From Alphaproteobacteria bacterium (GTDB taxonomy: Bacteria; Pseudomonadota; Alphaproteobacteria; Rs-D84), in NCBI GenBank assembly GCA_017471445.1, contig JAFUTJ010000008.1, positions 112,382 through 176,381 on the forward strand: DNA of 64,000 nucleotides, read 5' to 3'. The position numbers and the translations under genes are program-made. Below the pieces are notes generated by a model, which was given only the letters and a program-made list of their open reading frames with translations, ran no database searches and had not been told where the DNA came from. The number at the start of each line of letters is the position of its first letter. Position 1 is the stretch's first letter. Positions 7,866 through 55,517 of this stretch are shown here, in pieces.

Positions 7866-7887
7866 TAAAGAAACAAGGTAAAACAAA

Positions 7888-8703: not shown

Positions 8704-8708
8704 CCATA

Positions 8709-10384: not shown

Positions 10385-10407
10385 AATATAACAATGGGGT
10401 GATACCG

Positions 10408-11049
10408 ATGAATATAAAATACTTAATTGCAATGATTACGTTTATGCCATGTGTTGCGTCGGCGGCAATTCCATACCGCGTACAACAGGTGCGAACCCCG
10501 CATGATACACGCGAAAGTGATACTGCGGCATTTGCAGATGCACATCGGTTCTATGTCGGCGGTATGTATGATTTTTCAATGTGGTTGTCTGATAATGATG
10601 GTACGACACATGCGGGCGGAAAAAACACATCTTCGTTTGATGCGGTCGTTGGGGTGCGTGCGCTTGACACATTCCGACTGGAACTTGACTATACCCACAT
10701 ACGCGCAAAATGGAATACGTTTTCATTGACTGGCAATGCCGCGTTTATAAACGCGATTGTTGATGCCCGCATTGACAGTTTGTATCGTATCTTTTACCGG
10801 CAACACATTGTGCCGTATGTTGGTGTGGGTGCGGGCCTGTCGTGGAATGATGCCGACGGCACCGAAATATCGCACGACATGTCGCCGGCGTTTGCGGCCC
10901 TGGGCGGCGTTGCGGTTGAACTGGGGGAATATTTTGCAATTGATTTTGGATATCGGTATTTATACATGGTATCGCCACGGTTTGATGTTGTATCTGATAT
11001 GAATCCCCGCGCGCATCAGTTTCGCGTTGGCGCACGTGTTAATTTCTGA
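10408..11049 (+). CDS. outer-membrane beta-barrel protein (OMP_b-brl family)
   Basis: Signal peptide ...CVASAA and C-terminal ...GARVNF. ATG at 10408 is preceded by GGGGTGA; the ORF track begins at an upstream GTG (10399). Confidence 0.65.
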   Translation: MNIKYLIAMITFMPCVASAAIPYRVQQVRTPHDTRESDTAAFADAHRFYVGGMYDFSMWLSDNDGTTHAGGKNTSSFDAVVGVRALDTFRLELDYTHIRAKWNTFSLTGNAAFINAIVDARIDSLYRIFYRQHIVPYVGVGAGLSWNDADGTEISHDMSPAFAALGGVAVELGEYFAIDFGYRYLYMVSPRFDVVSDMNPRAHQFRVGARVNF

Positions 11050-11987: not shown

Positions 11988-12029
11988 CGGTGTTTGATAC
12001 CGTTAATTATCAAACCAGTCAAATCAAAA

Positions 12030-12052
12030 ACGGCCATTCGGCCGTCTTTTTT
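12030..12052. terminator. bidirectional rho-independent terminator
   Basis: ACGGCC-ATTC-GGCCGT flanked by an A-run upstream and a T-run downstream, between convergent genes. Confidence 0.7.
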
Positions 12053-12746
12053 ATCTATTCTTGTTCATAAAATCATCACGCATTTTATTTACAGTTATAT
12101 TTTTTACAATTTCATATGCCGGTGGAACAGTATTATTATTGCGCTTAATTTCCAGAACATCGCCACGCTGAACAAAGTCGGCAATACTTTCACCATTGGT
12201 ATATTTTTTATGCAACGTCATTTCACCAAAGATTTTACCATACACATGCATAATGGTGGAATATTCTTCTTGGATAACACCTGTAACAATCATTTTATCA
12301 CATTCCAATTGTTGGTGTAACTTTTGCTGAATACCGACAATTTGTCCGTTGTTGTTGGTTTCAACAATAATATCATCATTTACCTTTAATTCTGGCAAAA
12401 ACGGTTGCCGTTCACGATATACATACATGTCACCATTTGTGTTAATCAATGTAATATCGCGATAATATTGGTTTATGGTGCGCATTGCTTTTATATGCAT
12501 CTCACACGGTTCATTTTTACCAATCGCATTTTTCAGAAAAACCCATTTATCATTTTGCTTTGTAACGTCTATCATATCGCCAACATTGTATGGAAAATCT
12601 TGACCATCAACGGTCATATATACCACACGGCCATGTTTATTTGTTAATCGAATGCGGCGTTCATTTTGGGTGATATTTTCGATTTTCATGATTCGCATTC
12701 TGTATACCGATTCTTGAACATCGGATGATTTTGTATTTTGGAACAT
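12051..12746 (-). CDS. hypothetical protein with three internal ~65-aa repeats
   Basis: Start moved to MFQNTKS (ATG at 12746, RBS AGGAG). The longer ORF-track N-terminus would cover the dnaK promoter. The repeats share an x-I-x-L-x-N-x-x-G...GD-x-I/L-x-V/I pattern. Confidence 0.5.
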   Translation of the reverse strand: MFQNTKSSDVQESVYRMRIMKIENITQNERRIRLTNKHGRVVYMTVDGQDFPYNVGDMIDVTKQNDKWVFLKNAIGKNEPCEMHIKAMRTINQYYRDITLINTNGDMYVYRERQPFLPELKVNDDIIVETNNNGQIVGIQQKLHQQLECDKMIVTGVIQEEYSTIMHVYGKIFGEMTLHKKYTNGESIADFVQRGDVLEIKRNNNTVPPAYEIVKNITVNKMRDDFMNKNR

Positions 12747-41513: not shown

Positions 41514-41774
41514 CTATCGCAAAACCGCGCCCTTTATCATTGTAACGTCTTCTTTGATGCCATCTATTTTCATTTGCAATTGGCCAATGCCCGTTTCCAA
41601 AATGGTTGTACGATTTTCCAATGCGGTTATTCGCGCATCCGCCCGTTCAATATCGGTCAAGGACGAATCTTGGCGGGCAACCCAATAAACCATACCGGCG
41701 ATAAAGGCGATTAAAAACCAACTGTCGCGCAGGGAATCGATTATTCCACGCATATTATTTTTCTGTGACATCAT
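41514..41774 (-). CDS. membrane-anchored coiled-coil protein (phage-cluster)
   Basis: One TM helix (WFLIAFIAGMVYWV) followed by a coiled coil. Confidence 0.4.
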   Translation of the reverse strand: MMSQKNNMRGIIDSLRDSWFLIAFIAGMVYWVARQDSSLTDIERADARITALENRTTILETGIGQLQMKIDGIKEDVTMIKGAVLR

Positions 41775-41971
41775 TAACCACCCTGGCCCCGTGTTATTAA
41801 TGTTTCAATTTTATGCACCAGGGCGCGTTGCCCTTCTAGCATTCTTAATTCTGCGTCGGTTGCGTTTGCGCCCAATACGCGTTCAACCGTCATCCGCCGC
41901 AGGTGCGCCATTACTGCCGCGCCTGATGGTCCGGCAAATGCGCGCGCAAAGCAATTTTCAATATTTTCCAT
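41774..41971 (-). CDS. small phage protein (Bbp19-like?)
   Basis: 65 aa, FARAFAGPSGAAVMAHLRRMT...LEGQRALVHKIETLI. It resembles small proteins found next to portal genes in alphaproteobacterial prophages. The family name is recalled, not verified. Confidence 0.35.
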   Translation of the reverse strand: MENIENCFARAFAGPSGAAVMAHLRRMTVERVLGANATDAELRMLEGQRALVHKIETLITRGQGG

Positions 41972-41990: not shown

Positions 41991-43226
41991 CTAAATCATA
42001 TTTTCGGCGGCCGCCATTTGCACAATCGGGGCCAAGTATTTTAATTCGGCATCACTGTGCAATGATATATGTTCAATTACCCCGCGCCGTGACAGTATTT
42101 GCAGCCCCCGTGTACACAACGGGCGTATAAATTCATGTAACAATCGCCCATACGTTGCCCCCAGAATGCGCATCATATCACTGTTACGGGCCAATATTTC
42201 CGTTGCGGTCATTTCTTTATCGGTCAACAATCCCAACCGGTCGGCCAACATTGCATGGCGAATGCGTTCCCGCAAATCGTTCAATATTATTTGCGAAACG
42301 TCAAAATCGGCACCACTGGACAATGGGGTCAGGCCCGAACTGCCCACGGCCTTTGGAATAATTGCACCAGGTGTCAGATTAATATTCGCCAGGTTTATTA
42401 CACCATCATCGTCCGCCATCCATATACCAGAAACGGCAATGGTTGCATTTTTTAGTACCAATTCAACAACCTTGTTCGCGGTTTTAATATCTGGCAATGT
42501 GCGCAATACCGGGCCGCGCCCGTACAATTCGCCCGACATTAATGACCAACGGAATATCAGGTACGGGTTTGTGTCAAACGTGCCACGTGCAACGATATTA
42601 TTTTCCATATTACCGCCAACATCCAACCATGCGGTAAAGTCACAATCGTCGCACAGGCATTGCACCATGCGCAATGGCATGTCTGGGTCGTGACGCATTT
42701 TGTCGGCAATGTCGGCGGGCGGTGTCCATGTTGGGTATTTTTCTGTGACATCGCGGGCGGTCATTGTTGTGGTATGAAATATTGCATTTGGCAACACGGC
42801 AATATCGGTAATGGGTATTGCGATAAAGTTAAACGCACTGTCTGCACCAATTGGATTTTCGGCCATGAACATACACGCCGTACCGTAAACAACCAAATCC
42901 ATATAGCATTGATGGACCGTTGTATAAAAATTAGAATCGTTCAGGTGCGCCCGCAATGCCGCCGCCGCGGGTTCTGGGTCGGGGGCAGAATCGCTTTCCT
43001 GTACCAGATTAATCCACAAACTTTCCGGCGGGGTCAGCAATGAATACATTGCCGCGGCCAGGTTATCCGCCGCATCGGCCGCCGTTGCGTCAAACAATGT
43101 TGCCGCATCTGAATCCGACGATGGTATGGTATACCGCCGCGCATCGTCCCAACGGTGAATCCACGGCGCACGCATATCAATTGCACGGCGATACATGCGT
43201 TGTAATTTTTCAATATCATATTGCAT
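41991..43226 (-). CDS. podovirus-type portal (head-to-tail connector) protein
   Basis: LQRMYRRAIDMRAPWIHRWDDARRYTIPSS...AADNLAAAMYSLLTPP parallels T7 gp8 (YERLKNDRAPYETRAQNCAQYTIPS...GLNNLASKLMLALFP). Start moved to MQYDIEKL (43226, RBS AAAGGA). Confidence 0.7.
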   Translation of the reverse strand: MQYDIEKLQRMYRRAIDMRAPWIHRWDDARRYTIPSSDSDAATLFDATAADAADNLAAAMYSLLTPPESLWINLVQESDSAPDPEPAAAALRAHLNDSNFYTTVHQCYMDLVVYGTACMFMAENPIGADSAFNFIAIPITDIAVLPNAIFHTTTMTARDVTEKYPTWTPPADIADKMRHDPDMPLRMVQCLCDDCDFTAWLDVGGNMENNIVARGTFDTNPYLIFRWSLMSGELYGRGPVLRTLPDIKTANKVVELVLKNATIAVSGIWMADDDGVINLANINLTPGAIIPKAVGSSGLTPLSSGADFDVSQIILNDLRERIRHAMLADRLGLLTDKEMTATEILARNSDMMRILGATYGRLLHEFIRPLCTRGLQILSRRGVIEHISLHSDAELKYLAPIVQMAAAENMI

Positions 43227-43260
43227 AACAAAATCCTTTTGGTTTATTTTTAAGTGTTTG

Positions 43261-44106
43261 TTACAGGTTAAATTCTGTATTCGCATAAATTGTCGTGGGC
43301 GTGTTGCATGTTGCACGTACCGGCATCGGGCGGCACGAAATTGCACCGGCAACCGCGTCCAGGCCGTCATCATGCGTTGCACCATTTGGTGTCCACCCAA
43401 TCATTTCGGGCAACAATTGCGTTTTTGTAATCCGTGTATGCGCATGCATGCGTCCAGACCCCAACAGTGGTTCAATCGCATCGCAAATGCGAATTTCTTT
43501 GTTCGTGTGGTTTGACACCGGGTCAATAACAACACCGATGCCGCGGGCGCGGGCAATACTGCGCATTATTTCAGGTAATGTGCCGCCAATACCGTTTGTT
43601 TCAATTGCGATGCGGCGCATTTGATACCGCGACATTAAATTCAGTATTGTTCCGCATTGCCACGTGATTGGCGAAGGGATGTTTTCTGGTGGTGACATAT
43701 ACATTACGTCGTGAATAAATACATGGCGCGATATATCGTCGCGGTACAAGATGACGCAAACACTGCCATCATGACCACGCCCGGCGGACGATGGGTCCCA
43801 ATAAACACATGCCGCATTAATTGGCCAATTGCCAATTCGCGCATGGTCTGAATCAAAATCATCGTCATAAAACTTAATTTTTTCCGGGTCCAGACGAACG
43901 CCATCCATCGGCACAAAATTTAACATCATTTGCGATGAAAAATGTCGTTCACCAACAATCGTGCGAATTTCATTTATCTTGTCGGTCCCAAAAACATCGG
44001 GCCATGTGGGCGTGCCGGCGGCATCCATAATCGGTATTCGCAACACACGATACCCTCGCAAAAAAGGAATTGAAAAACCAATTTTTTCATATACTATATC
44101 AGACAT
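43261..44106 (-). CDS. terminase large subunit, C-terminal nuclease half (split gene)
   Basis: WPDVFGTDKINEIR...FSSQMML, then the RNase-H-like nuclease signatures CVYWDPSSAGRGHDGS, IAIETNGIGG and THDDGLDAVAGA. No ATPase motifs. Its ATG shares the tetranucleotide CATG with the divergent dnaB start. Confidence 0.7.
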   Translation of the reverse strand: MSDIVYEKIGFSIPFLRGYRVLRIPIMDAAGTPTWPDVFGTDKINEIRTIVGERHFSSQMMLNFVPMDGVRLDPEKIKFYDDDFDSDHARIGNWPINAACVYWDPSSAGRGHDGSVCVILYRDDISRHVFIHDVMYMSPPENIPSPITWQCGTILNLMSRYQMRRIAIETNGIGGTLPEIMRSIARARGIGVVIDPVSNHTNKEIRICDAIEPLLGSGRMHAHTRITKTQLLPEMIGWTPNGATHDDGLDAVAGAISCRPMPVRATCNTPTTIYANTEFNL

Positions 44107-45670
44107 GGATTTTACCCCAAAAACTTTACCAACAAATTTAGAAGCGGAACAGGCCGTACTGGCCGCTGTGTTAATGAATAACCGCGCATTGGAACGTGTA
44201 TCGGAATTTTTACGTACCGAACATTTTGCGCACCCCGCACACCAAGAAATCTATAAATTGGCCGAACGTCAATTTGCCGCAGGTATTCCGTTTGACATAA
44301 TTACTGCGAAAAATTATCTGGACCAACAAGGAACACTGGAATCTGTGGGTGGGGTTGATTATTTAACCCAATTGGCCGGGGCCGGCGCAACCGTTGTAAA
44401 CGTTGAACAATATGCGCGAATTGTATGCGAAAATGCAATGCGGCGCGAACTGATTAACCTGGGGCAATCAATTACAGACGCGGCATACATTGAAGATTTG
44501 GACAATCCTGTTTCGCATCAGTTAGAGGTTGCAGAACAAAAACTGTTCGAAATGTCAACCAAAGGTTCGTCCGAGCGCGAAATTGCATCAATCGCCACCG
44601 CATTAAACGAGGCCATGCAGGAGGCCGAGGTTGCATACAAGGCCGACGGTAAATTATCGGGTTTGACAACGGGACTAAACGCGTTGGATGCGGCAATCAG
44701 TGGACTGCACCATTCCGACCTGATTATTATTGCGGGCCGTCCCGGTATGGGAAAAACAACATTGGCCATGAATATTGCGTTTAATGCCGCAAATGCCATT
44801 CTGAACGGGCGGGCAAATGACCGGTATCGTGGCGCGGTTGTATTTTTCAGTTTGGAAATGTCGCAATCGCAATTGGCGGCGCGTGTGTTATCATCGCAGT
44901 CAAAAATTCCGGCATCGTCTATGCGCGAAGGAAATTTGACAGACGAAGATTTCCTGAAAATGTCCCAGTATTCGTCGGCAATTGGGCGCGTACCATTATA
45001 TATTGATGACACGCCCGGCATGTCGGTGCCAATGATTCGTACGCGTGCGCGGCGTTTGGCACGGAAATGTGGCGGGATTGCGTTAATTGTGATTGATTAC
45101 CTGCAATTAATGACATCACCCGGCGGACGGCGCAATGACAACCGTGTCCAAGAATTATCTGAAATAACGCGTGGTCTGAAAGTATTGGCCAAGGAATTAG
45201 ATGTGCCGTTGATTGCCCTGTCGCAATTGTCACGCAGTGTTGAACAGCGTGACGACAAACGGCCACAGTTGTCCGACCTGCGTGAATCGGGTTCTATTGA
45301 ACAGGACGCGGACATTGTTATGTTCACATACCGCGAAGAATATTATTTGCAAAACCGTGACCCATCACAACGCATATCCGGAAATACCAATTCAACAATT
45401 GTTGAAAGTTGGCAAAAACGTTATGACCGTGCCAAGGGCAAGGCTGACGTTATTTTGGGCAAGAACCGTCATGGTCGCACAGATACGTTGCACATGGCAT
45501 TCTTTGGCGATTACAGTTTGTTTGATAACCTGCCGGATGATGTGGGTGACCGTGGCGATGATGGGTATGGCACACCAACAACAAATGCGCCCGCGCAATC
45601 GACCAATATGGGTGACGAAGTGCCCGATTCAATTGATTTAAGTGCGGTGCCGGATGATATGCCGTTGTAA
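44105..45670 (+). CDS. dnaB: replicative DNA helicase DnaB (with acidic C-terminal tail)
   Basis: N-terminus PTNLEAEQAVLAAVLMN, Walker A GRPGMGKTT, and IDYLQLM, ALSQLSR, LRESGSIEQDAD. Start moved to MDFTPKTLP (44105). About 45 extra D/P/G-rich residues at the C-terminus. Confidence 0.9.
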   Translation: MDFTPKTLPTNLEAEQAVLAAVLMNNRALERVSEFLRTEHFAHPAHQEIYKLAERQFAAGIPFDIITAKNYLDQQGTLESVGGVDYLTQLAGAGATVVNVEQYARIVCENAMRRELINLGQSITDAAYIEDLDNPVSHQLEVAEQKLFEMSTKGSSEREIASIATALNEAMQEAEVAYKADGKLSGLTTGLNALDAAISGLHHSDLIIIAGRPGMGKTTLAMNIAFNAANAILNGRANDRYRGAVVFFSLEMSQSQLAARVLSSQSKIPASSMREGNLTDEDFLKMSQYSSAIGRVPLYIDDTPGMSVPMIRTRARRLARKCGGIALIVIDYLQLMTSPGGRRNDNRVQELSEITRGLKVLAKELDVPLIALSQLSRSVEQRDDKRPQLSDLRESGSIEQDADIVMFTYREEYYLQNRDPSQRISGNTNSTIVESWQKRYDRAKGKADVILGKNRHGRTDTLHMAFFGDYSLFDNLPDDVGDRGDDGYGTPTTNAPAQSTNMGDEVPDSIDLSAVPDDMPL

Positions 45671-45736
45671 TTATTTTGCTTGCGTATTTGAACAATTTTA
45701 ATTAAAATTTTGTCAAGATTATCAAGGGAGATTTCC

Positions 45737-46744
45737 ATGGCCCAAGAAGAAATTATATTTCCAAATAACATTCGCAACATCCGCATGAAAAGCGGTATGA
45801 AAATGACCGAATTGGCACGGCGAACGGGGTTGTCTTTGTCGGCGGTTTCCAAGATTGAAAAAGGTGTACGCCGGTTGAACCAAAAACAACTGTTAAACAT
45901 CTGTAACATTTTGGGTTGCAAATTGTCAGACATTTTCATTCATGAATCAGACGCGGTGGCGGACCAATGGCAATCGGAAATCAAGCGCAGATTAAATGAT
46001 AATGAAGACAGCGGTCTGAAAGTATTTGGCAGTGGACTGCGCAAAATTCGGCAAAGCCGTGGCAAGACCATTGCCCAGGCGGCAAAAGATGCCGGCATGA
46101 CGTTAAGCGTGTATCACAAGATAGAGGTTGGTCAACGCGAAGTATATCAAAATGAAATTGAACCGTTGGCAAAATCGTTTGCGTTGTCGGTTGAAAACAT
46201 GTTTGATAAAATCGCGAACCTGTATAAATCTGGCGAATTAAATAAACAGATTAGCAAGGTTAAAGAACGTGTTAAGTCTGTTCTGATTCCGGGCAACCCA
46301 TTGGCCGGTATTGACATGCAAGGCAGTTTATATGGCGCAAAATTGTACGATAGTGCACGCAAAAAACTGATTCCGGTATTTGGAATACCAAATGGAAAAT
46401 CAATTGCATTCCGAAAATCTGACAAAACAATGATTGTTGCACCCGCCGGACTGGAAGGACGCAAAGGTATTTATGCCGTTGTTCCAAATGCCAAGCGCAC
46501 AGATGGTTTTATACCCGAAAAATCATACGTGTTTGCGGATTCAGAAACCGCCGCAGTCACGGGCGATTTGGCGGTTTGTATTGATTCTGATTTTACTGCA
46601 CTGGGGGAAAAGGACACCGCAACGGCACAGATTGTGCGTGTGCGCCAAGATGCCCACGGTAAACAATACGGTCAAATCGTATCACCAGATGAAAAGATTG
46701 TCGCCCCCACAATGCACAAAGTTATCATGATTGTCATGGAATAA
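45737..46744 (+). CDS. repressor-like protein with two XRE-type HTH domains and a degenerate S24/LexA-like C-terminal domain
   Basis: Two HTH units: IRNIRMKSGMKMTELARRTGLSLSAVSKIEKG and LRKIRQSRGKTIAQAAKDAGMTLSVYHKIEVG. The C-terminal beta-rich region has a CI/LexA-like layout but no clear Ser/Lys dyad. RBS GGGAG precedes the ATG at 45737. Confidence 0.6.
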   Translation: MAQEEIIFPNNIRNIRMKSGMKMTELARRTGLSLSAVSKIEKGVRRLNQKQLLNICNILGCKLSDIFIHESDAVADQWQSEIKRRLNDNEDSGLKVFGSGLRKIRQSRGKTIAQAAKDAGMTLSVYHKIEVGQREVYQNEIEPLAKSFALSVENMFDKIANLYKSGELNKQISKVKERVKSVLIPGNPLAGIDMQGSLYGAKLYDSARKKLIPVFGIPNGKSIAFRKSDKTMIVAPAGLEGRKGIYAVVPNAKRTDGFIPEKSYVFADSETAAVTGDLAVCIDSDFTALGEKDTATAQIVRVRQDAHGKQYGQIVSPDEKIVAPTMHKVIMIVME

Positions 46745-46775
46745 TTAATACATACAGACCAGAGAGAGAATATAC

Positions 46776-47450
46776 ATGACCCCAAAAGCCAGCGTTGTCG
46801 CGCAAAAGTTGTTAAATCTGTATCGGCAAGAACACGTTATATTTGGTGGGTGGTCTGCGGTAAATCCAATTTTTGTAAACGAAGCAACCGCAGACGTAAT
46901 TGCCGAAATGCGTAATCTGCCAAATGGAAAAACGTTAATCGCACATATTGAAAATCTGCGCACAGGACGTACCCCAATGAACACCATTGACCGCAGTTTA
47001 TTGCCATATGGCGGATTGATGGACGAAACCGCGGCGACAATTAAACTGACCACCGCAGAAATAACGGAACTGACAAACGGGTTGTCAAACTTTACACCCG
47101 ACCAAGACGGATTGGCGCGAATTCAATCGTTAAACGTTGTTAAAAAATTTGGCGATGAATGGTTGGTTGGTATTCGCGCAGCATTGGCCGAATACCCAGA
47201 ATTAATTGAAAAATGGGCGGTTGTACGTAAAACATATCGTGCATATTATTTATGGAAAGTGGCCAGCGATATGCTGACCACACCAATGTCAGAACGCGCA
47301 CGCGCACAATTACAGGCCGACATGCCAGATTATGAAATGTACCTGCCGATGTTTGGGGACGCAGGAACAGAACTGTTAACAAAACTGCGCACATTTATCA
47401 GCAGTATTAAACACCCAACCGCAAACAACGACGAAGGCGGCACAAATTAA
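46776..47450 (+). CDS. hypothetical protein (cassette gene 3)
   Basis: 224-aa ORF with no recognised motif. Its stop overlaps the stop of the terminase N-fragment at a TTAA (47447-47450). Confidence 0.45.
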   Translation: MTPKASVVAQKLLNLYRQEHVIFGGWSAVNPIFVNEATADVIAEMRNLPNGKTLIAHIENLRTGRTPMNTIDRSLLPYGGLMDETAATIKLTTAEITELTNGLSNFTPDQDGLARIQSLNVVKKFGDEWLVGIRAALAEYPELIEKWAVVRKTYRAYYLWKVASDMLTTPMSERARAQLQADMPDYEMYLPMFGDAGTELLTKLRTFISSIKHPTANNDEGGTN

Positions 47451-48064
47451 TCAGCATCACACGTGCGATAAATCGTGTCACGCGTATGTGGTGTGCCGAT
47501 ATAAATCATTGTACCGGCGGGTGATAATATAAAATCCAATTCACGCAATCTTTCCCGCAGGTCCGCACGTTTTTGTGATGTGTTGCTGGTGTTTGGAACC
47601 TCTATATCATCACAGATTATTAAATCGGCACGCATACCGGTTATATTGCCATGAATACCCTGGCATACCACGGATGGTTCACGAATACCAATTGGGCGGT
47701 TTATTGTTATTCGGTCAGATGACCATTCTTTTTTATTTGACGGCACCAAATCGCGACACATTGGATGGTTTTCAATTATATTACGAATGTGCCCCACCAT
47801 GCGGCACGCCAATGTACTTTCCGCCGATAAAATTAATATGCGTGTTTTGGGGTCGCGCGCCAATACGCACGCGGCAAAAATGCCAACAACGGTTGATTTA
47901 CCAGAATGTCGAAACGCCATTAACAATCCGCGGCGTGGTGGCGTACACAGCGTTTCAACCAAGAAACGCATGATTTGCCGGTGGTGCAATGGTGTTGTTT
48001 GCCCCAGGCATGCATTCCATTCATCCAAGAATCTATAAAACGCCGTAATCATTGCATATTTCAT
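47447..48064 (-). CDS. terminase large subunit, N-terminal ATPase half (split gene)
   Basis: Walker A AFRHSGKST, Walker B ADLIICDDIE, and coupling motif YIGTPHT. It ends 13 residues later. No nuclease domain. Confidence 0.7.
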   Translation of the reverse strand: MKYAMITAFYRFLDEWNACLGQTTPLHHRQIMRFLVETLCTPPRRGLLMAFRHSGKSTVVGIFAACVLARDPKTRILILSAESTLACRMVGHIRNIIENHPMCRDLVPSNKKEWSSDRITINRPIGIREPSVVCQGIHGNITGMRADLIICDDIEVPNTSNTSQKRADLRERLRELDFILSPAGTMIYIGTPHTRDTIYRTCDAD

Positions 48065-48195
48065 TTGGTGCCATGACCGTTATATAAACACAATCCTTTA
48101 TGCAATATGGGCATGTATCGCCATTCATGCAATACGGAACACAAAACGTTCTGACCCAGGTATATAATAATTTATGCATAAAAATCCCCCCCGGG

Positions 48196-48543
48196 TTATG
48201 ACATTAATTCGTCAAAGCGATTAATTAACGATTTTAATATATTCGGTCGCGTGGTTTTTATGTTGCGCAATTTTTCAATATTGCGGCGACGTTTTTCATC
48301 GTATGTTGCGCCCGATTCCGATGCAATGCGCGACAGTACGGCATCGGTTGTCATGCCACGTGTTGCAACGCCACCAGAACCATATTTTGCGCGCTGGGCA
48401 GCGATATTCTTTTTAACCAGGTTTGTTTTCGCCGTTGCGTCCGCAGCCATTTGCGCCAAGATTTGTTGGCGTTGGGTCTTGGCGGTGGATTTATTCTTTT
48501 TATAATCCAATACGTCTGTTACATCTGATACAATTTGTCCCAT
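48196..48543 (-). CDS. small basic coiled-coil phage protein (unknown; small terminase or internal protein candidate)
   Basis: 115 aa, K/R/A-rich, immediately upstream of the TerL N-fragment. Confidence 0.35.
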   Translation of the reverse strand: MGQIVSDVTDVLDYKKNKSTAKTQRQQILAQMAADATAKTNLVKKNIAAQRAKYGSGGVATRGMTTDAVLSRIASESGATYDEKRRRNIEKLRNIKTTRPNILKSLINRFDELMS

Positions 48544-48569
48544 TGTTTTCCCCCATTGTTATTTAATTG

Positions 48570-50288
48570 TTAAATTATATAGTGGCCGTATGCCGTTACC
48601 GATAACACATTTATTGGCATGGCATCGGTACCACTGATTTCCCAGATTGGCGTAAATGCGTCATATCGTGTCCCCAACATTCCAATTGATGCATCGCCGG
48701 AAAAACCGGTGGCGTTATCCGAATATATAGAATTTGGCAAAGTAACGCGCATGCCATTTAATATCAGTGACTTGGTATCGCGCACACGCACAGACAGCCG
48801 GCGTATGCGCACATGGCGCGCGTTATGTCCACCACCACGCAGTGGCATCGCCGATGCACAATATGAAAAACTGTATGCATTCATATCATTCATTGCGGTT
48901 TCATCAAAGCGTTCAATGGTATACACACCATCGCGACATACACATACAAATGTATTATGACCAATCGTGCATACAGATTGAAAATCACCATGTGTTGTAT
49001 AGTGTGACCATGCGGCAATTCCCATTTGTGCATTGTAATTCATTACCGCCATATCACCCGCGGCCATTACAACATACATGCGGCGCAACGTGTCATTATA
49101 TGTAATGTCAATTGGGTCGTGCATTAAATGTTTCGCCATTGAACATAAATCGGTTGCACGGTAATTCTGGGCCAAATCATCCAACACCAATTGCCGAATG
49201 TCGCATCCGGTACGTGATATAAACACAGTTGCACCCGATACACATTGTGGGGCCAGGTATTTGTCAGTCAAACTGCCCACCGATGTGTGTTGTTTGATAT
49301 CAATTGATGATGGGGTTAATGGTTTACTGGTAATCGCCCATTCACCAGAATCGGTCAATATTTGTAAATTATCACTGGCCACCACGGTGCATATATGTTG
49401 TGGCGATTGCGACAACAATGTTACAAAAATTGCCTCGTCATCCAGACCGGTACCGACATCAAAGTTATTATGACGGCCAACCTGGGACATCCATACGCCA
49501 CATTTGTGCGACCGCGAACCACCGAATATCAGGCGGTCTTGATGAAATGTAATACTGGTTGGCCAACCACGCGCATTTGAAAACACCGATTCACGCCAAT
49601 CGGCAACCGGGCCGGCGGGAATTGAATATGCACCGTTTACAAACGCAACCAATTGCGATTGGTTTATATATTCGCGAATTGTCCATTGTTGATTCATTAC
49701 GATAAATGTACTGCCGACTATATCGGGTGTCCAACATGCGCGATTTGCCGTAAATGTTGCAAAATTATTTCCATATTCATGCGTTGAAATTGTAATCGTT
49801 ACATCCGACGTATCGTCAAAGCGCATAAATGGCATAAACATGTCTTGATTATTATCAGAATGCGCAAATTCAAATCCGGTTAATGTAAACGTGCCACCGT
49901 TGCCGCGTAATACACGCGGGCGATAATCTGGGTGAACAAATATCATGGTATCAAAACGTTGGGCATATTGTATGCATGGAATATCATCTGTACCCCATGG
50001 CGATAATATGTCGCATACGCGCGTGCCATCGGGCGTATATATTGCAATATGTTCTGGCATAATTGCCAATATATAATTTTCATTAACACCAACACAGAAT
50101 GGCACCAGGCGCGCGGCATCATAAATATTACAAACATGCGCCAATCCAGAACGGCGAATAATACCACCACCGTCGGTTACATCCATATTTTCCAACCGCG
50201 ATAAACCATGTATATTATCGTTTGTATAAAATTCTGGGGAAACCGCACCATGCGCAAACGAAGAATACGTTTTTACAAAATTTGTCAT
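48570..50288 (-). CDS. tail tubular protein B (T7 gp12/nozzle)-like
   Basis: ARGWPTSITFHQDRLIFGGS parallels T7 gp12 NPWPSF...FFFRNRLGFLSG, and AAWSHYTTHG parallels QSWSHWDFG. Located after the gp11-like gene. Confidence 0.55.
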   Translation of the reverse strand: MTNFVKTYSSFAHGAVSPEFYTNDNIHGLSRLENMDVTDGGGIIRRSGLAHVCNIYDAARLVPFCVGVNENYILAIMPEHIAIYTPDGTRVCDILSPWGTDDIPCIQYAQRFDTMIFVHPDYRPRVLRGNGGTFTLTGFEFAHSDNNQDMFMPFMRFDDTSDVTITISTHEYGNNFATFTANRACWTPDIVGSTFIVMNQQWTIREYINQSQLVAFVNGAYSIPAGPVADWRESVFSNARGWPTSITFHQDRLIFGGSRSHKCGVWMSQVGRHNNFDVGTGLDDEAIFVTLLSQSPQHICTVVASDNLQILTDSGEWAITSKPLTPSSIDIKQHTSVGSLTDKYLAPQCVSGATVFISRTGCDIRQLVLDDLAQNYRATDLCSMAKHLMHDPIDITYNDTLRRMYVVMAAGDMAVMNYNAQMGIAAWSHYTTHGDFQSVCTIGHNTFVCVCRDGVYTIERFDETAMNDMNAYSFSYCASAMPLRGGGHNARHVRIRRLSVRVRDTKSLILNGMRVTLPNSIYSDNATGFSGDASIGMLGTRYDAFTPIWEISGTDAMPINVLSVTAYGHYII

Positions 50289-50305: not shown

Positions 50306-50824
50306 TTAAAAGCGAATATTAACCAGCGAAAATGAATCAATCTCTTCGCATGGGGTGGTTGTACTGTCAATAAAGCGGGCCGTTTTTAATTCTGATTCAT
50401 ATAACGTGGCCAACATGCGAAACACATTCTGGTCACCAGTTAATGGGATACAGAATTCCAGTGCCAATTTCGTCGCCGCCAAATCAACAAAATACCCCGG
50501 AAAGCATTCAACCGGCGTGCGCGTTATTGCCAGTATGCGATTTGTTTTTCCCGGTGCGTAAATGCGGTTTCCCACAACGCGCCCACGGCATCGCACAACG
50601 CGCAGTACATTGTTTGGCAAAACAAAATACCCGCCGTCATTGCGTACTAAATCAATTTGGCGACACGCAAATCGCCACGGGTGCGACGCAATTAATCCAT
50701 CCATAATCGGTCCAAACAGTGTGCGCGACAAATTAGCCGCCGCCGTATCATCGGTCAATGCATTTATCGGACGTTCACCCAATTTTAATAATGCCATTGA
50801 ACATATATCTATCTTGGTCAGCAT
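50306..50824 (-). CDS. tail tubular protein A / adaptor (T7 gp11)-like
   Basis: ICSMALLKLGERPINALTDDTAAANLSRTLFGPIMDGLIASHPWRF parallels T7 gp11 VNDILASIGEPPVSTLEGD...[21 protein letters not shown]. Start moved to MLTKIDI (50824, preceded by a G-run RBS). Confidence 0.55.
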   Translation of the reverse strand: MLTKIDICSMALLKLGERPINALTDDTAAANLSRTLFGPIMDGLIASHPWRFACRQIDLVRNDGGYFVLPNNVLRVVRCRGRVVGNRIYAPGKTNRILAITRTPVECFPGYFVDLAATKLALEFCIPLTGDQNVFRMLATLYESELKTARFIDSTTTPCEEIDSFSLVNIRF

Positions 50825-50890
50825 AAAATACCCCCCCATATAAAATTTGGGCCGCGATATTCACGGCCCAATATGAACACACCAAATTAT

Positions 50891-51121
50891 TTATGACAAC
50901 GCCGCTGTCGTAACATTAGACGCAGTAATATTGATTCGCTTAATCGTCGTTGTATCCGATGCGTTAATGATAATAATATCACCAATATTCATCAGCGTTT
51001 TTACCGCATTAAAATACCCCGTGGCAGAAATTGTTGCCATAGTTTCGGTCGCACAATAATGCCACAATGTAAATCCATTTGCATATGCAATAACCGATAA
51101 ATTTTTATTTGTAAATGCCAT
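50891..51121 (-). CDS. small phage structural-module protein
   Basis: 76-aa ORF between the capsid and adaptor genes. Confidence 0.35.
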   Translation of the reverse strand: MAFTNKNLSVIAYANGFTLWHYCATETMATISATGYFNAVKTLMNIGDIIIINASDTTTIKRINITASNVTTAALS

Positions 51122-51147: not shown

Positions 51148-51975
51148 TTAGTGTTGGTCTGCAATATCTGCACATTTAACGCGCACGATACCGTTGTTAT
51201 CAATTAATACTGCACCTTGGGACATGCTGTTGCTGATAAAGTGCGCGGCGCGTTCACCATGCCATGAAATATCGGTTTTGACATCTTGCCCGCATGCATG
51301 ACCAATGCTGGATGCATGATAGATAAAGCAATCACGATTATCATCTTTGACCGGCAATGCGTTATACATTACCCATGTAATACCCAACCATTTTTTGGAT
51401 TCAAACCCGCGTGTTAATGGCGAATCAGTTACATAATCTGCGGAAACAAATTCGTCCATTGATAACAATTCGTTCCATTGGCGTACCCCCACAACCGCAA
51501 AGCGGCGGCCATCGTCAGGAACATCGTTTGCGTTTAATATTTCAACCGCAGACAAAATTAAATTTTTGGTCAGACCTGTTGAATAATCACCAACTGCGGT
51601 TTCTGCCGAATTCATTGCATCAACGATTAATTCATCACTCTTGCGTCCCAACGCATACGCACCGGCCGACGCAACGACACGACGTTCGTCAATATTGGTC
51701 TTTAATTCATCCATACGGTCAACCCAATCGCCCGCATAGTAATCAGACAATACGCATTCAACCGGTTCATGTTCCAGATTCATAACCGGAACAATGCCGT
51801 GACGTGATTTTGTACTGGCCACGCCACGCCCAATTTTTGGGAATGTTGTGGATGCGCCAACAACACCCGATTTACTGCGTACTGTTGAACGCAGTTTTGT
51901 GCCCATTTGTTGGTAAGCCAAGTGTACATCGGCTTCGAACTGCTTAATAAAAACATTATCTATGGAAACAGACAT
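51148..51975 (-). CDS. major capsid protein (T7 gp10-like HK97 fold)
   Basis: FIKQFEADVHLAY...GASTTFPKIGRG...DELKTNIDERRVVASAGAYALGRKSDELIVDAM parallels T7 gp10 FLKVFGGEVLTAF...SAQFPVLGR...DVRSEYTSQLGESLAMAADGAVL. Confidence 0.6.
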   Translation of the reverse strand: MSVSIDNVFIKQFEADVHLAYQQMGTKLRSTVRSKSGVVGASTTFPKIGRGVASTKSRHGIVPVMNLEHEPVECVLSDYYAGDWVDRMDELKTNIDERRVVASAGAYALGRKSDELIVDAMNSAETAVGDYSTGLTKNLILSAVEILNANDVPDDGRRFAVVGVRQWNELLSMDEFVSADYVTDSPLTRGFESKKWLGITWVMYNALPVKDDNRDCFIYHASSIGHACGQDVKTDISWHGERAAHFISNSMSQGAVLIDNNGIVRVKCADIADQH

Positions 51976-52145: not shown

Positions 52146-52202
52146 AAAAATGCCCGGCTATTAAATACCGGGCATTAAAATAAAAAACCCGCATTACGCG
52201 GG
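52146..52202 (-). terminator. two tandem rho-independent terminators downstream of the KA-repeat gene
   Basis: On the minus strand, CCCGC-GTAAT-GCGGG followed by TTTTTT (52188-52202 region), then ATGCCCGG...CCGGGCAT followed by TTTTTT (52146-52178). Confidence 0.6.
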
Positions 52203-52212: not shown

Positions 52213-52569
52213 TTATTTTTTCTTGGTGGCTGTCTTTTTGGCGACAGTCTTTTTAACCGTTGCTTTTTTTGCAACCGGTTTTTTAGCAGCAACTTTCTTT
52301 ACAGTTGGCTTTTTCGCCGCAACTGTTTTCTTTGCAACCGGCTTTTTTGCGGCTGTTGCTTTTTTTGCAACAGGCTTTTTCGCCGCAACAGTTTTCTTTG
52401 CGACTGGCTTTTTCGCCGCAACTGTTTTCTTTGCAGCAGGTTTCGTCGCCGTTGCTTTCTTTACCGCCGGCTTTTTCGCCGCAACCGTTTTCTTTGCAGC
52501 AGGTTTCGCAGCCGGTTTCTTTGCAGCAACTGTCTTTTTCGCTGCAGATTTTAAGAATGTGAATGCCAT
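52213..52569 (-). CDS. histone H1-like lysine/alanine-rich repeat protein
   Basis: 118 aa made almost entirely of AAKKP(V/A)AKKTV-type repeats. Strong RBS GAAGGAGAG before the ATG at 52569. The opposite-strand 138-aa ORF is an antisense shadow. Confidence 0.75.
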   Translation of the reverse strand: MAFTFLKSAAKKTVAAKKPAAKPAAKKTVAAKKPAVKKATATKPAAKKTVAAKKPVAKKTVAAKKPVAKKATAAKKPVAKKTVAAKKPTVKKVAAKKPVAKKATVKKTVAKKTATKKK

Positions 52570-52680: not shown

Positions 52681-53337
52681 TTATGAATACAATTTCTTGA
52701 AACCATTTTCTATTTTGCGAATATATTCTGCATCGTTATCACGCCAATATTTTGGATCGCGCATCATGCGACGCAAGTCATCATCTGTTAAATTTTCAGA
52801 TACATTTTTTTCGGTACGCACATCTGGTTCCATTGATTGCATCATCTTGTAAATGCTTTGGATTCCCTGGGGTGTGGCGCACAATGCATCAAACGCATCG
52901 CGTGGTAAAAACTTTTCACCAAATGCATTTATTGCATTTAATGCGTCACGTGTTTTTTCATCACTACCGAAAAAATTTTTCATTTCTGACATTGCAGATG
53001 TTTCATTTTGCATTGCAAACAAATCAGATATAACAGGTGATAAAAATTCTGTTGCCAAGGAATAAATTTTTTCAACCTGGGCCGATGTTAATCCAATTTC
53101 ACGAAATTTTTGTCGCAACGAATCGTCATCAAATAAATCATTCGTTGGATAATCTGATGCATTTTCTGGCACACCAATTGCACGATTAAATTTTTCACGC
53201 GTGGCGTCATCTGAATTTTCATCTGGGATTGAAATCATTGAACCGATTTTCTTTTCCAATTCACAATATGATTTTATCAACGCATCTGTATTTAGTGTGC
53301 CATCATTGTTCTTGAATTTTTCTGGAATTTTTTCCAT
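52681..53337 (-). CDS. capsid scaffolding/assembly protein-like
   Basis: MEKIPEKFKNNDGTLNTDALIKSYCELEKKIG is typical of podovirus scaffold N-termini. Acidic and helical, and positioned upstream of the capsid gene. Start moved to 53337. Confidence 0.5.
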   Translation of the reverse strand: MEKIPEKFKNNDGTLNTDALIKSYCELEKKIGSMISIPDENSDDATREKFNRAIGVPENASDYPTNDLFDDDSLRQKFREIGLTSAQVEKIYSLATEFLSPVISDLFAMQNETSAMSEMKNFFGSDEKTRDALNAINAFGEKFLPRDAFDALCATPQGIQSIYKMMQSMEPDVRTEKNVSENLTDDDLRRMMRDPKYWRDNDAEYIRKIENGFKKLYS

Positions 53338-53338
53338 T

Positions 53339-53527
53339 TTATTTTCCTTTTGTTTCATTTGTTTGCTGCATAAAGTAAATGCCACCAATTGTAAATAATG
53401 CACCACACATCGCAAACAAATCAGAATCACCAACCATGTATGCAGCAATTGCAGATATTATTCCAATCGCAGACATTATTCGTGTGCGCGAATTTGCAAA
53501 AAAACCACCACTGAATATTTTATTCAT
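53339..53527 (-). CDS. small two-TM protein (holin-like)
   Basis: MNKIFSGGFFANSRTRIMSAIGIISAIAAYMVG..FAMCGALFTIGGIYF. Lies directly after the hydrolase gene. An alternative start is at 53548. Confidence 0.4.
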   Translation of the reverse strand: MNKIFSGGFFANSRTRIMSAIGIISAIAAYMVGDSDLFAMCGALFTIGGIYFMQQTNETKGK

Positions 53528-53540
53528 GTCTATCACCGGT

Positions 53541-53951
53541 TTACGCATAGAACAGTAATCCATCAATATCGGCAATATATCCACGCGACATTGCCCAATC
53601 TGGGATTACGCCATCATGGTGAAACATTGTTGCGCCGTAACAGTAATCTGGTAAATTCCCATGCAACATGCGTTCTGCGACACGGCAGCACATTTGCAAC
53701 CCACGATTTGCGGCATCAACATTTAATAATTCATGTTTGGATGATGTATCATTCAAAACCAGGAACATATTCTTATCAGAAACAATATCGCGAATTTCAC
53801 GCTTTGTTTTTATTGCAGCGTTCGCAATCATTGATGTTAACGCTTCGGCGGCACGCAAAGATGTGCCACCGGTTTCTGCATAAACAACACGTGCAACACG
53901 ATATACGATACGTTGCGACGCATCTGGGTTCTTTATCAGATTAAAATGCAT
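53541..53951 (-). CDS. cell-wall hydrolase (SleB/Hydrolase_2-like) endolysin candidate
   Basis: VARVVYAETGGTSLRAAEALTSMIANA...ATMFHHDG resembles SleB-family hydrolases. Start moved to MHFNLIK (53951). Confidence 0.55.
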   Translation of the reverse strand: MHFNLIKNPDASQRIVYRVARVVYAETGGTSLRAAEALTSMIANAAIKTKREIRDIVSDKNMFLVLNDTSSKHELLNVDAANRGLQMCCRVAERMLHGNLPDYCYGATMFHHDGVIPDWAMSRGYIADIDGLLFYA

Positions 53952-53976
53952 TATTGGTTCCCCCCGATAAAAAAAT

Positions 53977-54036
53977 CCCGCACAGAAATGTGCGGGACCA
54001 TTAAAAGCGAAAAATCCGCAACCAATTTGCGGACAT
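53977..54036 (-). terminator. two tandem terminators downstream of birA
   Basis: On the minus strand, TCCGCAA-ATTGG-TTGCGGA followed by TTTTT, then CCCGCACA-TTTC-TGTGCGGG followed by TTTTTTT. Confidence 0.6.
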
Positions 54037-54122: not shown

Positions 54123-54791
54123 TCATAATGTTATTTCATCGCCATAGACCAAAAAATATTGTTTATCATGACGCAATATCAACGCGCCATTTTCATTTAA
54201 TCCAATCATTTTAGCCGCGTTTCCACGATAACGTACAGTTTGGTTTAATCCAATCGCCATTTCCATCCAACGCGCACGTACAGACGCAAAATCAGAATGC
54301 ATCCATTTATCCATATTTCGCATCAGCACGCGTAACACGTCCAGAACCGCAATATCTGAACAATAATCCAACATCTTGGTCGTTTTGTATTCGGGAACCG
54401 TTGGATTGTTTTTTATATTTATTCCAATTCCGCATATTACAAATGCACCGGAATATTCTATTAATACACCACTTATTTTTTTACCTGAAACCAGTATGTC
54501 ATTCGGCCATTTTATGTTTGGCGAAATACCAAATGCGGCAAGCGTTTCTGCAATTGCGACCGCAACCGAATACGACAGGCGCGCATCGCGTTCGGGTGAA
54601 TTGTAAATAAAACTGACGTACAAATTACCATGATGGGAAACCCATGTTCGCCGATAACGACCACGACCGGCACTTTGTGCGTGTGCGACAATTGCCATGT
54701 GATCAGTTGCCGTACCAGATGCAATCATTTCATGCGCACGGGTTTGTGTGCTGGGGATTTTATCAAATGAAATTAATTTATAATTTGCCAA
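54123..54791 (-). CDS. birA: biotin--[acetyl-CoA-carboxylase] ligase, group I (no N-terminal HTH)
   Basis: SAGRGRYRRTW (GRGRxGRxW), KWPNDI, GIGIN. At 222 aa it has no DNA-binding domain. Confidence 0.85.
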   Translation of the reverse strand: MANYKLISFDKIPSTQTRAHEMIASGTATDHMAIVAHAQSAGRGRYRRTWVSHHGNLYVSFIYNSPERDARLSYSVAVAIAETLAAFGISPNIKWPNDILVSGKKISGVLIEYSGAFVICGIGINIKNNPTVPEYKTTKMLDYCSDIAVLDVLRVLMRNMDKWMHSDFASVRARWMEMAIGLNQTVRYRGNAAKMIGLNENGALILRHDKQYFLVYGDEITL

Positions 54792-55194
54792 TGGTGTATA
54801 TTCCGCCGTTATTTATTATGAATTGATGTCCGAATGTTTTTCGTAATTGATAAATCGCCGTGTCAACCGCATGCGTTGCCACACACGCATCATAACCCAA
54901 TGCAACCTTTAATTCCGCCATATTTGCGCCGCCGTTATACAGGCGTGCGATAATCTTTTCCTGGGCCGGGGGTAATATCATGTCGTGCCCAAATATTTTT
55001 TTCATAATACCGGTATTGTCCATCGCCCCCAAAATTTTTGCCTTTAATTCAATCCCAGAAATTTTATCATTTAATTTGATTGTATCAAAATCAACATCCG
55101 AATCCGCAGGCAAATCAACAACAGTCGCCCCCAAATCGCCCAAGATTTGACGCCAAACAACATCTGATGTATAAATGCGAATGCCACCCAACAT
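54778..55194 (-). CDS. winged-helix (OmpR/PhoB effector-domain-like) protein
   Basis: The C-terminus EKIIARLYNGGANMAELKVALGYDACVATHAVDTAIYQLRKTFG...GGIYTIG follows the trans_reg_C pattern. Overlaps the birA start by 14 nt. Confidence 0.5.
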   Translation of the reverse strand: MLGGIRIYTSDVVWRQILGDLGATVVDLPADSDVDFDTIKLNDKISGIELKAKILGAMDNTGIMKKIFGHDMILPPAQEKIIARLYNGGANMAELKVALGYDACVATHAVDTAIYQLRKTFGHQFIINNGGIYTIGKL

Positions 55195-55283: not shown

Positions 55284-55517
55284 TTATTCGCGATGTGCGA
55301 TAAATTTCGTAAAATCGTCAATATTTGCGCCGGTTGATGACAAGATTTTAGAAATACTGTTGGTTGATGGCCAACGCGGTTGCCCTTCGCGAGACCAGCG
55401 TTTTGACCGGTTAAACGTTGTTGGGTCCAGACCGCTGCACTTGGCCAGGCCCGAACAAGACATTCCGTGTTCTGTGGCAAAACATTCAATTGCGTGCCAA
55501 ACATCGTCGTGTGTCAT
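55284..55517 (-). CDS. small XRE/CI-type HTH protein
   Basis: WHAIECFATEHGMSCSGLAKCSGLDPTTFNRSKR...RWPSTNSISKIL matches the N-terminal HTH of alphaproteobacterial S24-type repressors, but no peptidase domain follows. RBS GAGGAGAA. Confidence 0.65.
   Translation of the reverse strand: MTHDDVWHAIECFATEHGMSCSGLAKCSGLDPTTFNRSKRWSREGQPRWPSTNSISKILSSTGANIDDFTKFIAHRE

Follow-up and report, generated by a model that had tools for sequence, protein, structure and literature searches.

Large terminases are seen as single-chain motors in which the ATPase and the nuclease communicate via a flexible covalent linker. In the T7-type enzymes of T7 (gp19) and PhiV-1 (NCBIfam model NF033889) the chain is about 590 amino acids (aa) long, and T7-type terminases as a group carry both activities on one chain of about 470-590 aa. 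The large terminase (TerL) described here belongs with them by sequence family and fold and, like them, has conserved ATPase motifs, the catalytic residues of the nuclease and a portal gene alongside its own, but its chain is broken inside the ATPase domain. It is encoded by two open reading frames (ORFs), TerL-N and TerL-C, each with its own start and stop, that lie 3.34 kb apart. The locus is found in a stretch of 64,000 nucleotides (hereafter the window) from contig JAFUTJ010000008.1 of an alphaproteobacterium of Rs-D84, the order of Candidatus Enterousia. Enterousia genomes are 0.75-1.0 Mb in size and hold about 850-950 genes; the paper that describes the group mentions neither phage, terminase and capsid nor gene transfer.

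Other described systems that the locus recalls are the gene transfer agents (GTAs). In RcGTA of Rhodobacter, BaGTA of Bartonella, the Caulobacter GTA and FpGTA, as here, a phage-derived cluster of head, tail, packaging and lysis genes, without integration or replication genes, is passed on vertically, occupies a fixed site and is under host-like purifying selection. A podovirus-like GTA was first reported in 2026, in Faecalibacterium. The Enterousia cluster has structural, packaging and lysis genes without integration or replication functions, and shows both vertical inheritance and purifying selection. The reading favoured here, with moderate confidence, is that a podovirus of the T7 supergroup gave rise to a cluster of head, neck and packaging genes that has been domesticated in the chromosome of Candidatus Enterousia and is passed on vertically. 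The cluster would be GTA-like in organisation, its terminase would come in two pieces, and an essential host operon lies within it. An original prediction from the sequence of the window had offered three readings: a prophage terminase killed by an inserted module, a terminase that works in two pieces, and a chromosomal helicase now housed in a phage gene. From the comparisons that follow, a terminase working as a two-piece enzyme appears to be the best-supported account of the split.

Both terminase ORFs are present where the original prediction had placed them, with the motifs it had listed: AFRHSGKST (Walker A), ADLIICDDIE (Walker B) and YIGTPHT (motif III) in TerL-N, and WPDVF, VYWDPSS, IAIETNGIGG and HDDGLDAV in TerL-C. 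Window proteins were compared with the profile libraries Pfam, PHROGs and NCBIfam, and Rfam was used for introns. On phrog_38 (760 positions) TerL-N covers positions 272-460 (E 3e-44) and TerL-C 466-701 (E 2e-38), adjacent and without overlap. On the NCBIfam model termin_lrg_T7 (NF033889, 500 positions) they cover 2-191 and 332-500, TerL-N scoring 233 bits against a cut-off of 150. The Pfam matches are Terminase_6N for TerL-N and Terminase-T7_RNaseH-like for TerL-C (32.7 bits, cut-off 27). An unsplit relative of 498 aa (P0244, at a locus labelled L087) has TerL-N residues 9-199 aligned at 9689-10261 and TerL-C residues 2-271 at 10262-11098. Since the two map end to end on this terminase, nothing is missing and no duplication is needed, and the proposal that they are contiguous parts of one TerL holds. 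A D-x-[IV]-Y element near both fragment ends had also been suggested as a short duplicated target. This was rejected: the DNAs of the two elements agree at only about 8 of 12 positions, both ends are covered by the linker of unsplit relatives, the halves map on the unsplit relative without overlap, and the junctions lack direct repeats in the DNA.

The position of the break can be read from solved structures. TerL-N aligns to residues 52-213 of solved T7-type terminases (4bij, 8dgc). For TerL-C the aligned segments are 29-64, 191-220 and 243-256, which correspond to 256-291, 441-470 and 512-525 of the T7-type enzymes. The cut therefore lies about 10 residues past motif III, inside the ATPase domain and not at the linker between ATPase and nuclease. 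The description of an ATPase half and a nuclease half has to be amended to this extent, as the last part of the ATPase domain goes with the nuclease half. In an AlphaFold2 (AF2) model of TerL-C, residues 1-70 have a predicted local distance difference test (pLDDT) of 27-65, and the nuclease (71-260) has block means of 80-96. Foldseek matched this model best to the terminase of T7-like PhiV-1 (E 3e-13), then to the nuclease domains of P22, HCMV, HSV and Sf6. The first 70 residues contain invariant positions although they are predicted to be unfolded alone, and judging from the model they may fold only against TerL-N.

The TerL-N search returned 812 homologues, and statements on homologues of TerL-N and of TerL-C rest on the best 120 of each. 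The TerL-N homologues are 198-221 aa long, with 74-83% identity, and share an end point, ...GTPHTxDTIYRT followed by 1-12 (mostly 2-8) variable, often acidic residues. FRHSGKST, L(I/L)CDD.E and GTPH are invariant in 23-81 TerL-N orthologues; in TerL-C the invariant positions include YWDP, D104, E169 and DDGxD (D246/D247/D250). All TerL orthologues have the same break, and TerL-C has its own conserved ATG. Homologues of TerL-C are 261-288 aa long except for P0123, of 402 aa. This protein was considered as an N-C fusion and rejected, as its extra length is an internal tandem duplication of about 120 nuclease-domain residues, probably an assembly artefact in a single contig.

A scan with TerL-N of one genome per GTDB species gave about 590 stretches, and the best 80, which were inspected, come from Candidatus Enterousia and other gut Alphaproteobacteria of chicken, ruminants, horse and human. 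IMG/VR holds 282 contigs of this kind, of which 80 were inspected (loci L099-L178). Gene order was followed by tblastn of the window proteins against 86 loci. The order of 16 genes, namely BirA, hydrolase, scaffold, capsid, p76, tail A, tail B, gp14-like, TerL-N, the inverted block of u224, HTH and DnaB, then TerL-C, portal, Bbp19 and p86, is identical in 80 of 80 genome loci and 80 of 80 IMG/VR contigs, over whatever part of it each contig covers. Each of the 16 ORFs is intact in 64-84 loci, and both TerL halves in 76-84.

Purifying selection acts on each of these genes. The ratio dN/dS (omega) was calculated by the Nei-Gojobori method for species pairs with dS < 1; even among these pairs dS exceeds 0.6-0.9, so the loci are not from near-identical strains. 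Omega is lowest for DnaB (0.033), followed by the portal (0.049), TerL-N (0.056), the double-HTH protein (0.061), the capsid (0.063), u224 (0.085), tail B (0.098) and TerL-C (0.108), and within the locus it reaches 0.35. The mean pairwise distance of the capsid (0.129) is smaller than that of DnaB (0.155). Between the phage-derived genes and DnaB or BirA, pairwise distances are correlated with rho 0.5-0.75, no less strongly than those of the two host genes are with each other (0.62). The left flank, BirA and a gene for a 138-170-aa protein, is fixed in 59 of 61 loci; the right flank varies. No integrase and no phage polymerase or replication gene was found within about 10 kb on either side of the cluster. 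The fixed left flank, the co-divergence with host genes and the lack of integrase and replication genes together indicate a vertically inherited domesticated element and not a prophage.

Between the halves lie the three opposite-strand genes that had been predicted, for DnaB, for a double-HTH protein and for a 224-aa product (u224). The junctions are as tight as claimed, with a CATG overlap at 44104-44107 and a TTAA overlap at 47447-47450, except that dnaB starts at 44105 and not at 44107. The start-start overlap in CATG is kept in 47 of 75 loci, the others having a gap of 19-25 nt, and the 4-nt stop-stop overlap in TTAA in 51 of 82. The idea that a chromosomal helicase sits inside a phage gene also finds support. 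DnaB passes the equivalog model of alphaproteobacterial type NF006606 (608.3 bits, cut-off 540) and TIGR00665 (510.5, cut-off 385), and fails the cut-off of the phage_DnaB exception model (415.9 bits, cut-off 498.65). Its best solved-structure matches are cellular DnaBs, the host genomes measure only 0.75-1.0 Mb, and the gene is kept in L040, an Enterousia locus where phage genes are deleted. Such evidence supports a nested DnaB of the chromosomal alphaproteobacterial type. The small genomes, the lowest omega of the locus and the retention in L040 also lend indirect support to the idea that it may be the sole replicative helicase of its genome. The double-HTH protein has 70-83% identity across species. 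No match to u224 was found in Pfam, PHROGs or NCBIfam, and its AF2 model (pLDDT 78) has no fold match in the PDB (best E 2.4). It has 1035 homologues, of which the 120 listed are 215-233 aa long, and as far as could be seen it appears restricted to the Enterousia clade. GC skew of the plus strand is negative over almost the whole window, where most genes lie on the minus strand; the dnaB operon is a rare plus-strand block with locally positive skew. The operon is probably head-on to replication, and this fits a secondary insertion.

Upstream of the dnaB ATG, all 74 loci have in common the motif AAAAAAGGCGTTGAAAAAGCA..TTTTT.ATATAC.AT, which contains a sigma-70-like promoter (TTGAAA, 16-17 nt, TATACT). 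The reverse complement of this motif encodes the conserved N-terminus of TerL-C, (M)VYEKNAFSTPFL. Codons 4-16 of TerL-C hold 1.66-1.75 bits of information at the third position, where the mean over the gene is 0.58 +/- 0.29, which indicates that constraint on the DNA goes further than the protein requires. From the end of the -10 element to the ATG the distance is 7 nt in the window and 7-9 nt across the lineage group to which the window belongs. This suggests that in window-type lineages the dnaB transcript may have little or no leader. The other lineage group has a leader of 22-25 nt with an AAGGA ribosome-binding site. A palindrome, TGAAAAA-N2-6-TTTTTCA, lies in the promoter spacer and is unique in the window. 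It was considered as an operator but is exact in only 40 of 92 loci, and it is treated as promoter sequence under coding constraint and not as an established operator. A TerL-C promoter embedded in the 5' end of dnaB was also rejected, as the synonymous-site constraint there shows only a weak excess (1.14 bits against 0.78 +/- 0.22).

In the mechanism proposed for the domesticated cluster, TerL-N and TerL-C would be made separately and would associate non-covalently, the first 70 or so residues of TerL-C completing the ATPase domain of TerL-N. The assembled halves would act as packaging motor and nuclease and dock on the portal encoded immediately downstream; particles would be made and would package DNA. 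The host operon of dnaB, regulator and u224 would be driven by the promoter within the first 12 codons of TerL-C. Several observations weigh against such a packaging locus. In the 64-kb window no gene could be recognised for a small terminase, for a tail fibre or for a large core protein of the virion interior, and a hidden Markov model (HMM) built from candidate fibre genes that follow p86 in other loci (see below) has no match in it. No convincing promoter was found for TerL-C and the portal, the alternative being antisense reading through the 3.3-kb dnaB operon. TerL-C evolves much faster than TerL-N, with identities across species of 47-67% against 74-83%. In one Enterousia species (L040; JAZLBQ010000007.1, 9641-14600) the capsid gene is cut after 69 codons and the rest through the gp14-like gene is gone, TerL-C is cut after 89 codons and the portal is lost; TerL-N, the dnaB cassette, Bbp19 and p86 are intact. 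The cluster is thus dispensable, and TerL-N may have a use of its own. L040 amounts to a natural knock-out of the particle genes.

These observations lend themselves to another explanation, in which the phage-derived genes are selected for something other than DNA packaging, either as DNA-free particles or with the two halves co-opted separately for host functions linked to dnaB. The survival of TerL-N in L040, when the capsid is truncated and p76 through the gp14-like gene, most of TerL-C and the portal are deleted, speaks for it, as do the far better conservation of TerL-N than of TerL-C and the minimal tail and ejection set, without fibre or core proteins in the window. However, the portal, capsid, scaffold, adaptor and nozzle are selected as strongly as DnaB, which fits a complete head able to package DNA. 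No variation is seen in the catalytic residues of the nuclease or in the ATPase motifs, and a conserved but unfolded TerL-C N-terminus makes sense only as a partner of TerL-N. L040 is a single species out of about 75, and its loss of genes may be recent. Selection apart from packaging is a possible but unlikely explanation.

The nested layout might instead be a regulatory device, in which particle production and replication are mechanically exclusive, the cell commits to lysis by a switch, and the split terminase is an obligate heterodimer that depends on this switch. The argument for it is one of layout. From the late, capsid-side unit TerL-C and the portal can be reached only by antisense transcription through the dnaB operon, and the dnaB promoter fires from the start of TerL-C, so that the two would exclude each other. 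This is a tentative proposal and a quite unlikely one.

Separate translation of the halves would not be needed if the split were repaired on demand, by excision of the cassette in terminally differentiated, lysing producer cells, on the pattern of skin and sigK, or by an intron, trans-splicing or a split intein. The layout does resemble that of herpesvirus UL15, with two spliced exons around antiparallel genes, and joining at the D-x-I/V-Y elements would give a linker within the natural length range. However, the junctions (44100, 47450) have no direct repeats, no recombinase lies in or near the cassette, and no Rfam intron family is found in 42800-48600 even at E values up to 1. TerL-N ends 10 residues past motif III, too soon to accommodate half an intein, and neither fragment has extra length at the junction. 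TerL-C has its conserved ATG, and no fused form occurs among the homologues listed, all representatives of > 55% identity being at most 210 aa long. Repair is accordingly very unlikely. With no intron, intein, repeats, recombinase or fused form, separate translation with non-covalent assembly is what remains.

Still less can be said for a decaying prophage whose terminase was destroyed when host genes inserted. In its favour, the element has no genes for an integrase, for replication or for fibres and is no complete phage, and the L040 lineage has suffered further deletions. A functional prophage would have an integrase with att sites, a repressor switch, a module for replication and a full set of virion genes, and none of these was found in the window around the cluster. 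Decay is nonetheless most improbable, because ORFs are intact in 64-84 species, omega is 0.05-0.11 for key genes, the capsid is more conserved than DnaB, and about 590 genome stretches keep the layout, in genomes that at about 0.9 Mb would quickly shed useless DNA. The original suggestion that a module had inserted into the terminase and killed it fails on the same ground, the halves being intact in 76-84 independent loci with omega of 0.056 and 0.108, invariant catalytic residues and a fixed chromosomal site. Hardly credible are an active temperate phage or mobile element with dnaB as cargo, for which the 282 contigs listed as viral in IMG/VR might speak and against which stand the fixed site beside BirA in 59-64 loci, co-divergence with host genes and a chromosomal-type DnaB, and an assembly chimera, an artefact for which the original prediction had allowed, as many studies have yielded the same layout, in > 160 independent assemblies; among them is OZ007020.1, a chromosome record of 958,618 bp with an isolate name tagged 'metaflye_circ'.

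The history of the domesticated cluster can be followed in its relatives. An uninterrupted TerL had been called for as a check. None was found among the listed homologues of > 55% identity, but unsplit TerL relatives of 470-515 aa do occur at 47-51% identity to TerL-N. The cluster of the closest of them, L087, is built alike, with scaffold, capsid, p76, tail A, tail B and gp14-like genes followed by TerL. Between its scaffold and capsid genes, on the opposite strand (555-2381), lies a 608-aa gene of metallo-beta-lactamase/ODP type, a second host-like gene nested backwards in such a cluster. In L177 (IMGVR_UViG_2820136564_000001, 4731-12600) dnaB also lies between the TerL halves, with 68% identity for TerL-N and 56% for DnaB. 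Here dnaB abuts TerL-N, not TerL-C, and an 834-aa cysteine-rich, secreted-looking protein replaces the HTH protein and u224; pilin-like and ParA-like genes are found between TerL-C and the portal. In a neighbour-joining (NJ) tree Enterousia and L177 form a clade with 100% bootstrap support, which indicates that the combination of split and dnaB arose once and is old. It would have arisen before the Enterousia radiation and the divergence of L177, and would have been kept by selection since.

The same break is found without the cassette. In L178 (7980-9726) the halves are adjacent with a spacer of about 215-270 nt, and in L089 and L090 (10001-11480) they are adjacent with overlapping ATGGGTGA codons. 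L091 (10001-11518) has a lone unsplit TerL copy flanked by small ORFs. The TerL relatives of L178, L089/L090 and L091 sit among host genes without a nearby capsid or portal gene, and they could represent further elements that are domesticated or spread over several loci. When metagenomes were scanned with P0267, the adjacent-split TerL of L089, the only relatives to turn up had 27-29% identity. Monophyly of all split forms has 0% support in the NJ tree, and the sister of Enterousia plus L177 is L178 in 14% and P0269 in 12% of replicates. As the split lineages do not group together, the linker is a recurrent, permissive site of fission, and it is plausible that fission preceded the dnaB insertion in the Enterousia line. 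Among cultured phages, the closest capsid is that of a Pelagibacter podophage (43%), and the closest terminases are those of T7-like phages (35-37%).

Table 1. Features of the window, listed in the direction of transcription of the phage-derived genes (minus strand).
Feature	Coordinates	Strand	Description	Basis
small HTH protein	55284..55517	-	77 aa, upstream neighbour, possible regulator	weak Pfam HTH_26/HTH_23; 81-aa gene in same place in L001-L004
138-aa protein (170 aa in other lineages)	54778..55194	-	directly upstream of biotin ligase gene	no Pfam match
BirA-type host biotin-protein ligase	54123..54791	-	fixed left neighbour	TIGR00121 141.8 bits, cut-off 83; same position in 64 loci
cell-wall hydrolase	53541..53951	-	endolysin candidate, first phage-derived gene of cluster	Pfam Hydrolase_2 E 1.8e-5, just under cut-off; gene call in L005
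69-aa protein	53339..53548	-	two hydrophobic segments; putative holin	gene call in L005; no family match
T7-type scaffolding (capsid assembly) protein	52681..53337	-	218 aa	Pfam Phage_T7_Capsid E 1.9e-9; 64 loci
histone H1-like protein	52213..52569	-	118 aa, lysine/alanine repeats, between scaffold and capsid	Pfam HC2 (chlamydial) 46.6 bits, cut-off 40
major capsid protein	51148..51975	-	275 aa	Pfam Phage_capsid_2 E 5e-71, phrog_3437
p76	50891..51121	-	76 aa, head-module protein	78 loci, omega 0.064
terminator-like hairpin	50847..50871	-	just after capsid and p76; 11-bp stem, 7 GC pairs, T-rich tail	
tail adaptor (tail tubular A-like)	50306..50824	-	172 aa, podovirus	phrog_394 E 8e-29; 79 loci
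tail nozzle (tail tubular B-like)	48570..50288	-	572 aa, podovirus	phrog_376 E 1e-77; 80 loci
gp14-like protein (T7 internal virion protein)	48196..48543	-	115 aa	Pfam T7_gp14 E 3e-4, below cut-off; same position in 81 loci
TerL-N	47447..48064	-	205 aa, ATPase core: Walker A, Walker B, motif III	Pfam, PHROG and NCBIfam matches
u224	46776..47450	+	224 aa, all-alpha, last gene of nested operon	
double-HTH regulator	45737..46744 (ORF from 45710)	+	335 aa, two XRE-type HTH and uncharacterised C-terminal domain	Pfam HTH_3, two stretches, E 1.5e-20
DnaB	44105..45670	+	replicative DNA helicase, 521 aa; divergent from TerL-C	NCBIfam; Pfam DnaB and DnaB_C
TerL-C	43261..44106	-	281 aa, final ATPase-domain segment (1-70) and RNase H-like nuclease (71-260)	Pfam, PHROG and NCBIfam matches
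candidate dnaB promoter	44070..44097	+	TTGAAA, 16 nt, TACTAT; inside TerL-C codons 4-13	promoter scan
portal (head-to-tail connector), T7-type	41991..43226	-	411 aa	Pfam Head-tail_con E 2e-79
Phage_Bbp19-family small protein	41774..41971	-	65 aa	Pfam 53 bits, cut-off 25; 74 loci
p86	41514..41771	-	85 aa, one hydrophobic segment and coiled-coil-like tail; last conserved cluster gene	71 loci, omega 0.11; no family match

The remaining genes of the cluster (Table 1) fit a podovirus head and neck. Identity across species is 80-87% for the capsid and 73-85% for the portal. Pelagibacter phage Hodr and L087 likewise have a p76 gene after that for the capsid, and the Bbp19-family gene of Hodr adjoins the scaffold gene; the genes of Hodr are all annotated as 'hypothetical', and its gene order was recovered by tblastn. 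The hydrolase is conserved in 65 loci, with an omega of 0.35. Genes for proteins of 111-118 aa occupy the place of the HC2-like gene in L001-L005, and the HC2-like protein could be a DNA-condensing or packaging accessory. The hairpin after capsid and p76 recalls the T7 terminator that follows gene 10. Further terminator candidates with a hairpin and T-run lie at 52149-52202 and 53974-54034, both on the minus strand, and split the cluster into units; none of the terminator hairpin candidates is found at either cassette junction.

Seventeen loci (including L017, L018, L023, L033, L041, L059 and L063) have a gene of 154-170 aa directly after p86, spaced by 19-84 nt in nine of them and by about 610-810 nt in the other eight. 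Its N-terminus resembles Mtd_N of the major tropism determinant, and the product is a candidate receptor-binding fibre. On the left side, the homologue of the 138/170-aa protein has 53% identity to the window by tblastn, and the C-terminus of the 138-aa protein, judged by its sequence, resembles a winged helix. Farther out lie core chromosomal genes, namely those for TyrRS, an M23 peptidase, LrgAB, SSB, Rho, a class II aminoacyl-tRNA synthetase and NrdD. In one metagenome-assembled genome (JAZTWT01) TerL-N, u224 and the HTH gene are present on each of two contigs (L017 and L024), with 77% identity to the window in both, which points either to a duplicated locus or to a bin that mixes two strains.

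A break within the ATPase domain that has been selected across the roughly 160 loci inspected offers a ready system for asking which contacts a packaging motor needs, and the split site suggests a permissive position for terminase engineering. The locus is a candidate podovirus-type GTA in bacteria with about 900 genes. That some 9 kb of phage genes persist in so small a genome argues for an important role of the particles, such as an exchange of DNA that makes up for genome decay. A replication-gene promoter written into terminase codons is an unusual entanglement of host and phage genes. In IMG/VR many of the 282 contigs are trimmed to about 10-12 kb with the host dnaB operon included, and evidently provirus predictors call this domesticated element a virus. 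Listing 282 chromosomal loci as 'viral' can mislead analyses of viromes and host prediction.

A search of the literature in full text for Enterousia, Rs-D84, split terminases and podovirus-type GTAs gave no description of this arrangement. This agrees with the original prediction, which knew of no described case; herpesvirus UL15 is analogous in layout only. In UL15 of HSV-1 and its homologues two co-oriented terminase blocks, kilobases apart, surround antiparallel genes throughout the clade, and this topology is the one seen here. However, the UL15 blocks are exons spliced in the nucleus, and the genes they enclose are viral (UL16, UL17), whereas each TerL piece has its own start and stop, the enclosed operon is a host one and there is no intron signature. 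The UL15 exon junction probably also falls at a different place in the ATPase domain. The skin element in sigK, SPbeta in spsM and the nifD element likewise leave a gene in two co-oriented pieces kilobases apart. Those elements have a recombinase and att repeats and are excised in terminal cells, in contrast to the essential operon without recombinase or repeats that separates the TerL pieces.

Of the GTAs, none to our knowledge has been described with a split terminase or a nested essential host operon. The Bartonella locus of BaGTA and run-off replication was considered as a parallel and rejected, since the papers on it give a lambda-like terminase and a Twinkle-like helicase at different loci. 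GTAs make particles that carry roughly random host DNA, too little of it to pass on the GTA cluster as a whole; for the Enterousia cluster, particles and transfer would be predictions. It is not homologous to the head-tail cluster of RcGTA, which has a siphovirus-type tail and its own types of TerL and capsid; here TerL is T7-type, the capsid belongs to Phage_capsid_2 and the adaptor and nozzle are those of a podovirus. FpGTA of Faecalibacterium is like the Enterousia locus in its podovirus-type tail genes and its gut habitat.

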